Shown one piece after another: positions 6,878 to 44,816 of a stretch of 64,000 nucleotides of DNA (the stretch's first letter is position 1; every line of letters begins with the position of its first letter). Below the pieces are notes generated by a model. The model was not told the DNA's origin. It did no database searches and was given only the letters and a program-made list of their open reading frames with translations. Source of the DNA: an uncultured Actinomycetes bacterium. GTDB taxonomy: Bacteria > Actinomycetota > Thermoleophilia > Gaiellales > JAICJC01. The DNA lies in NCBI GenBank assembly GCA_963718315.1, contig CAVQZC010000006.1, forward strand, positions 262,065 through 326,064, read 5' to 3'. Made by a program: the position numbers and the translations under genes.

Positions 6878-6963
6878 GCGCTGGTGGCGGAATTGGTAGA
6901 CGCGCAAGGTTGAGGGCCTTGTGACCCGTATGGGTCGTGGAGGTTCAAGTCCTCTCCAGCGCA
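6878..6963 (+). tRNA. tRNA-Leu (anticodon GAG), class II with long variable arm, CCA not encoded
   Basis: Folded by hand. Acceptor GCGCTGG/CCAGCGC, D arm GCGG-AATTGGTAGA-CGC, anticodon arm CAAGG-TTGAGGG-CCTTG, variable arm GACCC-GTAT-GGGTC, T arm GGAGG-TTCAAGT-CCTCT. Confidence 0.85.
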
Positions 6964-7098
6964 CTCCCCGGAAGCCGCATGGTTGAGCGGCTTTCGGCGT
7001 TTCTGGGGCCGGAAGGCTCGCTTGCAAATCGTGCTGATTGCTAGCGCGTGGTACCAGCCGTCCTACCAAAGTTCGCCGCCGCCAAGCCGCGCGACCGG
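6910..7098 (+). repeat. att-like copy 1: 101-nt core (6910-7010 = 3' 54 nt of tRNA-Leu + terminator) plus conserved left arm (7011-7098)
   Basis: The core matches 27265-27365 at all but one position by eye and is closely similar to 42333-42432 and 44718-44816. The arm aligns with 27366-27453 and more loosely with 42433-42500. Confidence 0.8.
6972..6993 (+). terminator. Hairpin downstream of tRNA-Leu (AAGCCGC-ATGGTTGA-GCGGCTT), also present in every repeat copy
   Basis: 7-bp perfect stem immediately after the tRNA. It has no strong U tract, which I recall is common for terminators in high-GC genomes. Confidence 0.4.
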
Positions 7099-7548
7099 TC
7101 GGTAGCCGACCGGGTCGGTCGCGAGCTCGGAGTCGACCGCGTCTACGCCGAGCAGTCCCCCGAGGATAAGCTCGAAGTCGTCCGCCGGCTGCGCGACGAC
7201 CCGGAGCTGCGCCCAGTGATCATGGTCGGTGATGGAGTGAACGATGCGCCCGCGCTGGCACTGGCGGACCTCGGTATCGCGATGGGCATGGCCGGTGCGA
7301 CCGTGTCCTCGGAGACCGCCGACGCCGTCATCACCGTCGACCGGATCGATCGAGTAGCAGACGCAGTGCACACCGGCCGTCGGTCACTCCACATCGCGCG
7401 CCAGAGCGTGCTCGCGGGGATGGGACTCAGCCTCGCCGCCATGGCCGTCGCCGCCGCCGGATACCTCACACCGGTCGCGGGCGCCCTCTTCCAAGAAGCA
7501 ATCGATCTCGCCGTCATCCTCAACGCCCTACGCGCACTACGCGACTGA
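7048..7548 (+). pseudogene. C-terminal fragment of a P-type (heavy-metal type) ATPase, 5'-truncated at the island arm
   Basis: DRSVADRVGRELGVDRVYAEQSPEDK, MVGDGVNDAPALALADLGIAMG and two final TM helices. Everything upstream of about 7095 is island-arm sequence, not ATPase. Confidence 0.75.
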
Positions 7549-7719
7549 CCTGCGAAACCCGGATCGGCCACAGAGCTACCAGACCACCGGCAACGGCTAA
7601 CCGAGCAGAGCACAGTCTCCGCACGCTGCAACTCAGGAATGAGAATACGCGTAGACCCCGATGTGCCCGCCGAGCCACCTCGGGGATGATCCTTCCCGAA
7701 CCGACGTCTGGAGATTGAA

Positions 7720-7998
7720 ATGTCCGAGCCGCAGCTGATCAGTGACGACCAAGCACGCGATGTGGGGGAGGCGATCGGGATCGAGTGGGATTCGGCCCCG
7801 TTCGACGTCCACGAGTTCCGCCGAGGGATGAATGTCGAACTCGAGCACGGCCTGCGCGATCCAGCCACCAACGTGACGGATGACGACCCGGAAACCACGG
7901 CGAAGATCGCGCTCGCCCACCTCAACGAGTTCCCCGACTACTACACCCGTCTCGAGCAGATGGAGGAGGAAGCCAAGCGTGAGTTCTCAGGGCGGTGA
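7720..7998 (+). CDS. DUF5661-like small protein
   Basis: 92 aa with motifs ELEHGLRDPATNVTDDD and IALAHLNEFPDYY. Family name from memory. Confidence 0.55.
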   Translation: MSEPQLISDDQARDVGEAIGIEWDSAPFDVHEFRRGMNVELEHGLRDPATNVTDDDPETTAKIALAHLNEFPDYYTRLEQMEEEAKREFSGR

Positions 7999-8030
7999 TG
8001 GGTGCGCTTCCCCCGTAGGGTCGGGCCGGC

Positions 8031-8222
8031 TCAGATCGGCTTGATCGAGAGCGCGCCCAGCGGGCAGACGTCGCACAGAGCCTGCGCGCGTTCCTGGTCG
8101 ATCTCGGCTAGCAGTACATGGGCCGAGCCCTGGCTGTCGAGCTCGATTGCGTCGGGGTCGAGTGCGACGCACTCGGCCGATCCAATGCACGAGTCGAGGT
8201 CAACGATCAGATGGACGGGCAT
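8031..8222 (-). CDS. Small [3Fe-4S]/[4Fe-4S] ferredoxin (P450-type Fdx)
   Basis: Last 63 aa of ORF 8031-8573: MPVHLIVDLDSCIGSAECVALDP...ALCDVCPLGALSI (C-x5-C ... C-x2-CP). ATG 8222 is preceded by GGGAGGA. Confidence 0.8.
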   Translation of the reverse strand: MPVHLIVDLDSCIGSAECVALDPDAIELDSQGSAHVLLAEIDQERAQALCDVCPLGALSIKPI

Positions 8223-8248
8223 GGTGAGGTTCCTCCCTTGGCGTTGTT

Positions 8249-43114: not shown

Positions 43115-43370
43115 ACGCCCGATACTACCCGCTACCCGACTGGTCCCCCAGCCGAGCTGCGGCGGCTCGGAGTGCCGCGGGATCTTGAGCGGCCAGAGCC
43201 CGTGTCCACACGCCCTGGCCGCCCAAAGCAGGCACTACTCGACCTTGTAACTCGCGATCGATCTGCAGCACCTAGTTGGTACCGAACTAGCCATCACGCT
43301 ACGCAGTCGGCGGGCGGCGCGCATCGGGGTCATCCCCTAACACGCTTTGGGAGTTCCCCGCAGGCGCTCA

Positions 43371-43435
43371 GCTTTCGTGACCTGACCCGAGTGCCCGCGC
43401 TCCACAACACGCGGTCCAGTGGTCACCGCCTCAGC
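43371..43435 (+). promoter_or_regulatory. Conserved ~65-nt element with nested inverted repeats, copy 2
   Basis: Aligns with 17205-17267. Lies 46 nt upstream of micro-ORF copy C. Confidence 0.4.
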
Positions 43436-43480
43436 CCACGCGATCGAGACGGGCAAGACGACTACAGCCGGAGGTGCACG

Positions 43481-43528
43481 ATGATGGGATCCCGCAGGGC
43501 CGTGGCTTTCTCGCCCCGGTTCGGCTGA
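43481..43528 (+). CDS. Diverged micro-ORF copy C (MMGSRRAVAFSPRFG)
   Basis: Same SD-ATGATGGGATCCCGCAG start as copies A and B, but the peptide diverges after residue 6. Possibly decayed. Confidence 0.2.
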   Translation: MMGSRRAVAFSPRFG

Positions 43529-43726
43529 CCTGGTGGCCCGCTCGAGCGGCGTACCTGTCCTCGCCGGAGGGTGCTGGCCGTCGCCGGTTCGGGCTGGCGC
43601 GTGTTCGCCCCTCAGTTGGTGATTCTCCGCAGCCGGAATCGGTCGGTTCCCCGATGCGGCCGGCACCCGCTCCCGCGAGCATGAGTACCAGAGCAAGAGA
43701 TGACACTCCAAGGCTTGGAGAGGCAA

Positions 43727-44569
43727 ATGAAGACGCTTGGGATAATCGTGATGGTGCTGGTGCTGGTGACGGCCGTGCCGGCCGCAGCGATTGGCATTGA
43801 CTACAGCGCCGCGGACAACAGTGGCGCAAGCGCATCTGTCGCAGATTCCACCGGGTCTGGCGCTCCGGCGCCGGTGAGTGCGGCGTTGGTGATTCGGCAT
43901 CAGACGGCCCACTGCCACGCCTGGTCGTTCAACGGCGGCGCCTTTGCCGCTGACCAGTCCGCTCAGCTTGCCGTTGGTGATTCGATCAAGGTCACCAATA
44001 ATGACGTGATGGGCCACCAGCTGGTCGAGCTGTCGGGTCCGGCCGCGACCATCACCACCGCCCAGATGAACAAGCCGGGCGCCGGCGCCACCGTCATGTT
44101 CACCCGGCCCGGCACCTATGTGCTTGGCACCAAGCCCGGCGAGGACTACACCAAGGGCATCGTCACCACCGGCGCCGACAACGTGCTGCGGATGACGGTA
44201 GTAGTGGCGGCTCCTGGTGCCCCGGCGCCGGTGAGTGCGGCGTTGGTGATTCGGCATCAGACGGCCCACTGCCACGCCTGGTCGTTCAACGGCGGCGCCT
44301 TTGCCGCTGACCAGTCCGCTCAGCTTGCCGTTGGTGATTCGATCAAGGTCACCAATAATGACGTGATGGGCCACCAGCTGGTCGAGCTGTCGGGTCCGGC
44401 CGCGACCATCACCACCGCCCAGATGAACAAGCCGGGCGCCGGCGCCACCGTCATGTTCACCCGGCCCGGCACCTATGTGCTTGGCACCAAGCCCGGCGAG
44501 GACTACACCAAGGGCATCGTCACCACCGGCGCCGACAACGTGCTCAAGCTGCGGGTCGTCGTCTCCTAG
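43727..44569 (+). CDS. Secreted protein with two identical cupredoxin-like domains lacking the Cys-His-Met copper ligands
   Basis: Signal peptide MKTLGIIVMVLVLVTAVPAAA. Each domain has VTNNDVMGHQLVEL and RPGTYVLGTKPGEDYTKGIV where blue-copper proteins have C..H..M. Also an HQTAHCHAW motif. Confidence 0.7.
   Translation: MKTLGIIVMVLVLVTAVPAAAIGIDYSAADNSGASASVADSTGSGAPAPVSAALVIRHQTAHCHAWSFNGGAFAADQSAQLAVGDSIKVTNNDVMGHQLVELSGPAATITTAQMNKPGAGATVMFTRPGTYVLGTKPGEDYTKGIVTTGADNVLRMTVVVAAPGAPAPVSAALVIRHQTAHCHAWSFNGGAFAADQSAQLAVGDSIKVTNNDVMGHQLVELSGPAATITTAQMNKPGAGATVMFTRPGTYVLGTKPGEDYTKGIVTTGADNVLKLRVVVS
43865..44544 (+). repeat. Perfect tandem direct repeat: 323 identical nt (43865-44187 = 44222-44544), period 357 nt, in frame
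   Basis: Compared base by base in the given sequence. Confidence 0.95.
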
Positions 44570-44717
44570 AGGTCACAGCGCCCCGGGCTCCCCGTCGACG
44601 AGGTCACTGTCGCCTGGGAGCCCGATGGCGAACTGTTGCAACCTGTAAGTGCCGACGTTGACGATCTCAGCGCCCGGTGTCGGCTTCGGTATCCAAGCGT
44701 TTGCCTCGTGCTCAACC

Positions 44718-44816
44718 TTGAGGGCCGTGTGACCCGTATGGGTCGTGGAGGTTCAAGCCCTCTCCAGCGCACTCCCCGGAAGCCGCATGGTTGAGCGGCT
44801 TTCGGCGTTTCGGGGC
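44718..44816 (+). repeat. att-like copy 4 (distal; partial tRNA-Leu + terminator) with two substitutions in the tRNA part
   Basis: GGGCCGTGTGACCC versus GGGCCTTGTGACCC, and CAAGCCCTCTCC versus CAAGTCCTCTCC. The downstream sequence is unrelated to the island arms. Confidence 0.75.

Follow-up and report, generated by a model that had tools for sequence, protein, structure and literature searches.

The tRNA-Leu(GAG) locus and its repeated cores

In a 64-kb stretch of DNA from an uncultured bacterium (referred to as the window; L001 and similar designations denote outside contigs or loci that were compared with it), three islands of cargo genes lie in tandem 3' of a tRNA gene and are separated by copies of its 3' half (Table 1). 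The gene, tRNA-Leu(GAG), is the only tRNA that ARAGORN detects in the window, and a match to the Rfam family RF00005 at 6878–6963 (52 bits) agrees with this call. The unit repeated in copies 2–4 consists of the 3' 54 nt of tRNA-Leu together with the downstream hairpin. A 58-nt probe extending from the T-arm to the hairpin gave exactly four matches, all on the plus strand (6942, 27297, 42365 and 44750) and with 0–1 mismatches, and none in any of 100 shuffles. With a profile made from 13 cores, nhmmer returned the same four copies and none besides in the 64 kb. The four direct tRNA-half/hairpin cores that a preliminary description had reported from the sequence alone were thus recovered by both searches.

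The first base of the anticodon loop (TTGAGGG) is also the first that the cores have in common, and identity continues from there for about 100 nt to the hairpin tail GCGTTTC; the core reaches 45 nt beyond the tRNA and takes in the terminator. As in a tDNA island, an intact tDNA stands at one end and is followed by three co-oriented 3' fragments, and the identity block is anchored at a canonical sublocation, the anticodon loop. When the cores were aligned, substitutions in the tRNA part were found in copy 4 only, as had been described; the anticodon stem has a T>G change and the T loop a T>C change. Copy 2 carries one difference, in the hairpin loop, and copy 3 carries two, just past the stem. 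The hairpin is also present 3' of tRNA-Leu in 16 Gaiellales loci, with compensatory changes in 6 of 16 pairs, and because of this conservation it is, on comparative grounds, native chromosomal sequence. A compensatory pair in the variable arm is A...T in all four cores of the window and G...C in both cores of L002. This suggests a lineage-specific core variant, produced by exchange or gene conversion among the junctions within a lineage. Since gene conversion would also give a shared variant, any order of insertion read from the cores is weakened.

In the lambda/L5 scheme, the attachment site consists of a P arm, a core and a P' arm. The motif GTGGTAMCA occurs seven times in the window, as against 0.21 expected, and all occurrences are on the plus strand and in the arms that flank the cores. 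The L arms 3' of copies 1–3 are homologous (L1 and L2 are 87% identical; identity to L3 is about 65%), and so are the R arms 5' of copies 2 and 3 (R1 and R2 are 79% identical). The sites in R1 and R2 are perfect, and each L arm has at least one perfect site and one degenerate. The R pair, with its 11-bp period, lies about 95 nt 5' of the core and is followed by the GATCTSAG-type repeats. The offset of the L arm is constant at 82–84 nt from the tRNA end at J0, J1 and J2 and in L002 and L045, despite differing intervening sequence, and in L041 it is 72 nt, i.e. one 12-nt repeat less. Tandem repeats therefore stand at fixed distances on both sides of the core, as in an attP of the lambda/L5 type, and the attP-like layout of right arm, core and left arm that had been claimed for the internal junctions holds at J1 and J2. 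Complete att pairs (a core with L and R arms and intact GTGGTAMCA) are limited to islands 1 and 2, and no R arm was found at copy 4, where about 14 core-adjacent nt alone resemble R2.

A non-coding leader of about 250 nt follows the L arm (window 27454–27708 and L002 13484–13740, about 87% alike). The L2 region up to 27561, and again from 27648 to 27708, is about 87% identical to the stretch that follows the junction before the ATPase island of L002, and the leader thus precedes unrelated cargo, a sulfur island in the window and an ATPase island in L002. A promoter, a regulatory RNA and a transfer-related site are possibilities for its role. A core-like match (E = 0.23) and an L-arm-like match (E = 0.097) in the 17.1–18.2-kb gap of island 1 were rejected as chance, the region being a disrupted ORF for a secreted protein.

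Table 1. Position of the attachment target, cores, arms, islands and selected ORFs in the window
Feature	Position	Strand	Remarks
Intact tRNA-Leu(GAG), attachment target	6878..6964	+	ARAGORN, Rfam; identity block begins in its anticodon loop
Core copy 1	6911..7010	+	tRNA 3' half and terminator-like hairpin; junction J0, attL-like
Core copy 2	27265..27365	+	Junction J1, R-core-L, attP-like
Core copy 3	42333..42432	+	Junction J2; repeated in separate contig L031
Core copy 4	44718..44816	+	Junction J3; repeated in separate contig L031
L1 arm (P'-like)	7011..7098	+	Tandem sites GTGGTACCA (7048) and GTCCTACCA (7060), 12-bp phasing; first 84 nt past tRNA 3' end
R1 arm (P-like)	27140..27264	+	GTGGTAACA (27160) and GTGGTACCA (27171), 11-bp phasing, then GATCTSAG-type repeats
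L2 arm and non-coding leader	27366..27708	+	Sites at 27403 and 27415
R2 arm	42208..42332	+	Sites at 42228 and 42239
L3 arm, more diverged	42433..42520	+	Sites GTGGTAACA (42471) and GCGATAACA (42483)
Candidate degenerate L-arm remnant CGTGGTCGGAGTTGGAAGCAG	44854..44874	+	83 nt past tRNA-like end; by direct sequence reading
Island 1, ~20 kb	7011..27264		Redox genes and others, no recombinase
Island 2, ~15 kb	27366..42332		Sulfur/redox/transport genes, no recombinase
Island 3, 2.3 kb	42433..44717		SnoaL-like gene (-) and weakly cupredoxin-like gene; no distal R arm
P-type ATPase C-terminal fragment fused to L1 arm	7095..7548	+	Pfam Hydrolase, profile positions 124–191 only
Unannotated array ORFs, examples	9373–9831; 41465–41956

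Gene content of the islands and the search for a recombinase

Because the DNA is 65–70% G+C, genes were called with a codon-usage model. The Pfam scan took in those called genes whose products have about 90 aa or more, and about ten array ORFs of 47–86 aa were covered by tblastn alone. Island 1 encodes proteins with the domains Pyr_redox_2, ApbE (two), Kelch, DUF2252 and cyclase, two ferric-reductase-like proteins, a split sulfatase and two SfLAP. The first part of island 2 encodes DUF4386, DsrE, DsrC/TusE-like, SQR-like flavoprotein, TauE, YgaP-TM, MMPL and ArsR products. The rest of it carries DUF302, a flavoprotein, ABM, glutaredoxin, a cation/H+ exchanger and a LuxR/HisKA_3 two-component pair. 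In island 3, the match of the cupredoxin-like gene (43727–44569) is under the Pfam gathering threshold. A fluoride riboswitch (RF01734, 39282–39342, minus strand; score 41.5 bits, gathering score 34) is located directly 5' of a gene of the Na_H_Exchanger family in island 2 (38094–39254, minus strand), an arrangement by which the island is predicted to carry a fluoride-responsive transporter.

No recombinase or excisionase was found by Pfam among the called array genes, and none of the gaps of 170 bp or more gave a recombinase at E ≤ 1 in a six-frame Pfam search. A tblastn search of the 64-kb window with queries from the cognate family described below (nine integrases, four Xis proteins) revealed nothing; a match at 59977–60318 (E = 0.015) lies within a DUF1345 gene and was rejected as chance. 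The right flank out to 64 kb likewise gave no recombinase by Pfam. Relaxase, coupling-protein and replication domains were not found in the Pfam scans of the array, which among the called ORFs took in those of about 90 aa or more, and neither were the domains that mark integrative and conjugative elements (ICE), their actinomycete counterparts (AICE) or prophages, namely type IV secretion, FtsK/TraB, replication and virion domains. The products of g14 (152 aa) and g53 (163 aa) matched no Pfam family. The reported absence of recombinase, excisionase, relaxase and replication genes was thus upheld at three levels of sensitivity, for relaxase and replication genes by Pfam. Accordingly, the window does not offer the one integrase per island for which the island finder Islander asks, and the cognate Int and Xis that adjoin the P' arm in L041, L112, L115, L116 and L124 are absent from it.

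Viral contigs gave no match to the core probe and none to the R-arm motif. The L-arm motif gave 21 matches there, nearly all in low-GC contigs, and these are probably due to chance. Two high-GC phage contigs contain clusters of GTGGTAAC iterons unrelated to tRNA. In these actinophage-like contigs from IMG/VR (L014 at 8740–8810 and L018 at 6840–6900) there are 3–4 intergenic iterons whose octamer is the same as that of the arm sites, and the cluster of L018 adjoins an ORF that is ParB-like by eye. The match may reflect coincidence or a shared DNA-binding fold.

Sibling strains and Gaiellales relatives at the same site

The exact SecG protein is encoded on eight metagenome contigs. L001, 98.3% identical to the window, reproduces J0, and L031, 99.4% identical with 16 indels, reproduces J2 and J3; in the short-read contigs L002 and L003 two cores lie within one contig. 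Since separate contigs reproduce J0, J2 and J3, the array is not an assembly artefact, and this possibility, which the preliminary description had named as fatal to its proposal, was not borne out. The window itself is probably the product of long-read assembly prone to indels: the selD-like gene (5599–6631) is split into two ORFs here, and in L002, a sibling contig from short reads, it is unbroken (340 aa). For this reason apparent pseudogenes in the window, such as the sulfatase (20229–23119) that is split into three, need caution.

The siblings differ from the window in their modules. L002–L005, with flanks about 97% identical to those of the window, carry an extra core-bounded module of 2.9 kb between the tRNA and the next junction, which is absent from the window. 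The module comes with an L arm of its own, CGTGGTACCACTCGTGGTACCAAAC, and with a complete R-core-L junction, after which an intact P-type ATPase gene follows. Its genes, one lipoprotein-like and two for small membrane proteins, have no Pfam match and include no recombinase; the 361-aa product of the tRNA-adjacent gene, integrase-like by position and size, was rejected because it is lipoprotein-like and matches no Pfam family. The ATPase of the siblings is full length (in L003, 6092–7903, a 603-aa E1-E2 ATPase), and the window retains only its C-terminal 150 codons. In a BLAST comparison, 1.84 kb of L002 (13484–15325) is absent from the window, and the left end of island 1 is, as judged from this alignment, the scar of a 1.84-kb deletion. 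Beyond these contigs, the exact hairpin was not found in species-representative genomes, and a scan of JGI metagenomes returned only an already-known contig. Exact-protein look-ups with the hydrolase of the right flank and with the product of the gene that opens island 2 gave no match, so that alternative neighbours or an empty site were not visible by that route.

The selD-like gene 5' of secG is 72–77% identical at the amino acid level to that of 14 species-level metagenome-assembled genomes, which by this gene places the source organism in the Gaiellales. The gene order 5' of the tRNA is conserved in these 14 relatives, with selD-like, secG and tRNA-Leu present in 13 of them; in L039 no tRNA was found. 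Downstream of the tRNA, nothing is shared with the window or among the 14 relatives themselves. With the upstream side conserved and the downstream side unshared, tRNA-Leu is, in this comparison, a synteny break-point.

Several relatives carry an integrase module at this very site. After the tRNA and hairpin, L041 and L112 have CGTGGTAGCAGCCGTGGTAGCAGCG (12-bp phasing), then an excisionase-like gene of the HTH_17 type and, reading away from the tRNA, a gene for a tyrosine integrase (PF00589). This integrase belongs to a clade of homologues at 60–100% identity, and the same layout, with variants of the arm site, was seen in the homologues with readable contexts. Thus, in L115 tRNA-Leu and the hairpin are followed by three GTGGTAGCA L-arm sites, an HTH_17 Xis and a PF00589 integrase; L116–L119 have the same layout with the L-arm site GTGTAGCA and a hairpin 93% identical to that of the window, and L124 has it with GATGTAGCA. 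The hairpins of L116 and L124 come nearest to the one in the window. The integrases are 26–30% identical to tyrosine integrases of mycobacteriophages and Gordonia phages. Besides xis-int, the integrase-bearing relatives carry metabolic or regulatory cargo only, and conjugation or mobilisation genes were not seen in them. L115, L122, L124 and L125 are integrase-bearing members from the same sample series. The sequence after int in L041 was considered as an R arm and ruled out by comparison.

Other relatives have kept less. L035 retains an L arm and a Xis homologue and no integrase, which is consistent with decay; L037 retains the L arm only; and L045 contains a recombinase-less array whose R arms are homologous to those of the window. 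Since these three loci lack an integrase, loss of int recurs at the tRNA-Leu hotspot. The tRNA-adjacent ORFs of L036 (379 aa) and L035 (402 aa) were rejected as integrases, as they match no Pfam family and neither locus has an integrase match by tblastn.

Three further observations were made in these loci. L122 (ERZ25039457 contig_66140) contains at 3633–5014 an attP-like arrangement of an R-type pair GGTGTAGCAGTCGTGGTAGCAG, a hairpin, an L-type pair, an HTH_17 xis and a frameshifted integrase gene of the same family. It was rejected as a circular form of the element, since the contig has no overlapping ends and the core does not match tRNA-Leu; from its core, this family member apparently has a different target. 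L045 contains at 16037–16190 an inverted remnant within its array, in which a T-arm/acceptor fragment, the hairpin and an 11-bp-phased GTGGTAAC pair lie on the opposite strand, which suggests an inversion or an oppositely oriented insertion. In L036, about 100 A residues (~11390–11490) stand directly 3' of the tRNA-Leu hairpin, exactly at the hotspot, and are probably masking or an assembly gap.

Origin of the array

Taken together, these results make it quite probable that the array was built by serial site-specific accretion, which we consider the best explanation because it accounts for the repeat and arm anatomy, for the int-xis modules of relatives at the same site and for the module polymorphism between near-identical strains. 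The accretion put forward in the preliminary description thus gained support from the relatives' int and xis, the 2.9-kb module of the siblings and the synteny break-point. At least three tandem islands would have arisen as a tyrosine integrase repeatedly inserted circular elements, related to one another, into tRNA-Leu(GAG) at its anticodon loop, where the crossover would fall. The attP of an incoming element, built as in lambda and L5, would comprise a P-like R arm (two GTGGTAMCA sites at 11-bp phasing and GATCTSAG repeats), a core of 100 nt with copies of the tRNA 3' half and of the native terminator hairpin, and a P'-like L arm (two GTGGTAMCA sites at 12-bp phasing, 84 nt beyond the tRNA end); GTGGTAMCA is the presumed binding site of Int, and the GATCTSAG repeats are presumably bound by Xis. 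Each integration would restore the tRNA and displace the earlier 3' half outward, leaving R-core-L hybrid junctions between the islands, and the order of the islands would then reflect the order of insertion. In this family xis-int lies immediately past the L arm, and no module of the present lineage contains it; int may have been lost by deletion, or an int-bearing module may have been excised on its own. Islands 1 and 2, with full arm pairs, could presumably still be recombined by a cognate Int/Xis acting in trans or supplied by a newly accreted element, in the manner of cis-mobilisable elements (CIME), and island 3, having lost its P arm, would be a fixed relic. The modules today may be trans-mobilisable (CIME-like) or fixed relics, the two alternatives that the preliminary description had offered.

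Several points weigh against accretion in this form. First, no integrase was found next to arms of the window type (GTGGTAMCA) in any locus examined; in the relatives, where the preliminary description had suggested looking for an integrase flanked by the same arms, int/xis came with variant arm sites. Secondly, neither a circular junction nor an empty site was found among the loci compared, the latter having been anticipated as secG-tRNA-Leu joined directly to the hydrolase gene at 44.9 kb. Thirdly, an R arm is missing from island 3, and the remnant of the original attB may be something other than copy 4. In addition, the hairpin and variable arm of every core in the window are of exactly the variant found in the host lineage, which gene conversion among the repeats also explains. 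Finally, the recombinase search covered 64 kb of the genome, and an integrase may be encoded outside this stretch.

As to copy 4, its reading as the displaced original 3' half is favoured by the tRNA-part substitutions found there only, and is put in doubt by signs that it may not be the true end of the array. The right flank is island-like in G+C (0.64–0.69, against 0.70–0.74 upstream of the tRNA), so that the region past copy 4 looks accessory too, and DUF2252 paralogues that are 78% identical lie in island 1 (18249–19733, minus strand) and in the right flank (55627–57024, plus strand). CGTGGTCGGAGTTGGAAGCAG, which stands at the canonical offset from copy 4, is a slight hint in the same direction; the array may at one time have been longer. 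A profile search revealed no further junctions inside the window, and the L-arm profile did not detect the CGTGGTCGGAGTTGGAAGCAG motif.

A possible but clearly less probable alternative is that the modules are active non-autonomous cassettes, CIME- or integron-like, which are moved by an Int/Xis encoded elsewhere or by a transient tRNA-proximal int-xis 'driver'. Such activity would fit the perfect sites of R1 and R2 with at least one perfect site in every L arm, the ~350 nt of junction and leader that are common to unrelated cargo, and the existence of modules as small as 2.3–2.9 kb. Module presence or absence varies at about 97% flank identity, the lineage-specific variant in all junction cores hints at continuing exchange, and integrase modules of the same family occur in the same sample series (L115, L122, L124 and L125). 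However, homologous recombination between the 100-bp cores explains the module polymorphism equally well, and a cognate integrase for the GTGGTAMCA variant and circular forms were not seen. The missing P arm of island 3, the deletion scar at the L arm of island 1 and the one degenerate site in each L arm also speak against modules in active use.

A stronger version of this alternative, which we consider doubtful, is an integron-like exchange in the Gaiellales, in which a transient tRNA-proximal L-arm-xis-int 'driver' would act in trans on a library of cargo through ~350-bp R-core-L sites. If this were true, multi-gene modules for redox, sulfur and ion-transport functions would be shuffled between strains without mobility genes of their own. 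The modules of the array are multi-gene units of 2.3–20 kb in both orientations and with their own regulators; they are not the single-ORF promoterless attC cassettes of integrons, and no integrase is present.

It is very improbable that the R-core-L unit is a repeated intergenic element, tRNA-derived or like a miniature inverted-repeat transposable element, that happens to lie among ordinary gene clusters and marks no island boundary. The unit is indeed compact (~350 bp), conserved and placed between gene clusters, but every copy is collinear with the tRNA and has its orientation, only an L arm is present at the first junction, and no other copy exists in the 64 kb; moreover, in relatives the tRNA-adjacent L arm is followed by xis-int, and 14 relatives are syntenic upstream and unrelated downstream. 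An origin of the repeats in faulty assembly or in a recent segmental duplication is hardly credible in spite of the apparently indel-prone assembly (the selD-like gene being split here and intact in L002), as J0 recurs in L001 and J2 and J3 in L031, the short-read contigs L002 and L003 have the same type of junction with two cores in one contig, and the copies differ from one another in substitutions and in flanks, with unrelated cargo between them.

Under serial accretion, the array is a fresh example of a known process, the tandem accretion of non-autonomous or decayed islands, and involves no new mechanism. Its putative attachment sites resemble those of lambda and L5 in having the core in the anticodon stem-loop, tandem arm repeats on both sides at fixed helical phasing and, in relatives, xis/int beside the P' arm (the attL side). 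The CIME related to ICESt1 and ICESt3 of Streptococcus thermophilus have lost integration and transfer genes and kept attL and attR, and composite excision is possible (Pavlovic 2004 and Bellanger 2011, as summarised in the review PMC5704250). The islands of the window appear similar to them, being without integration or transfer genes, with core and arms kept in islands 1 and 2. They may differ in their parents, which need not have been ICE or integrative and mobilisable elements, the integrase-bearing relatives consisting of xis-int and metabolic or regulatory cargo. The target here is the tRNA anticodon loop, in place of the fda 3' end, and the host is an uncultured member of the Gaiellales. 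The array also has no autonomous partner in the window.

The ssrA islands of Dehalococcoides are likewise arranged in tandem 3' of a single small-RNA gene, with direct repeats of its 3' end, in a strain-variable region; 15 of them are without an integration module, and for these the status of CIMEs or of fixed relics was proposed (PMC3146451). That system uses the serine recombinase DsiB, 20-bp tmRNA repeats and a six-gene integration module (PMC3146451), whereas the system described here belongs to the tyrosine-integrase type; its cores are 100 nt long, its arm sites are lambda-like, and its xis-int module consists of two genes. For Streptomyces pathogenicity islands, accretion and cis-mobilisation are cited in the same review (Zhang & Loria 2017, in PMC5704250). 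They too belong to the Actinomycetota and arise by site-specific accretion of modules able to move together, but they differ from the array of the window by a functional ICE-like partner and demonstrated transfer.

Islander recognises an 'anticodon-centred' class of tRNA sites (PMC4383910), and the displaced 3' tDNA fragment at the far end of its islands is found here as well. It counts tandem arrays only if each member has its own integrase, and reports 4 arrays of at least three islands among 3919 islands (PMC4383910). In contrast, no module of the window has int or xis, and the core extends 45 nt beyond the tRNA. Because of the integrase requirement, the islands of the window are not called, and finders of this kind miss all 38 kb; arrays such as this one are systematically under-reported, though not unknown. 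The locus documents a tRNA-Leu(GAG) hotspot in a little-studied uncultured soil order, with its own integrase/excisionase family and a defined arm-site motif. The majority of the islands there are without a recombinase, yet they differ between near-identical strains, and their cargo is plausibly adaptive (sulfur/redox handling, metal/ion transport and the fluoride-riboswitch exchanger). It is thus a tractable place to gauge the share of non-autonomous islands in accessory-gene turnover of soil Actinomycetota.

Some minor features of the sequence were also recorded. An indel of 316 bp separates the window (at 14610) from the 98%-identical contig L001 (18013–18329), just 5' of the cytochrome-b561-like and Kelch genes of island 1. 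Genes with a DUF1269 domain lie on both sides of copy 4 (22208–23119 and 51521–52033, both on the minus strand). Within the cupredoxin-like gene of island 3, a 357-bp unit is present in 1.9 in-frame tandem copies with 99% identity (43857–44544), and the same repeat is found in contig L031.

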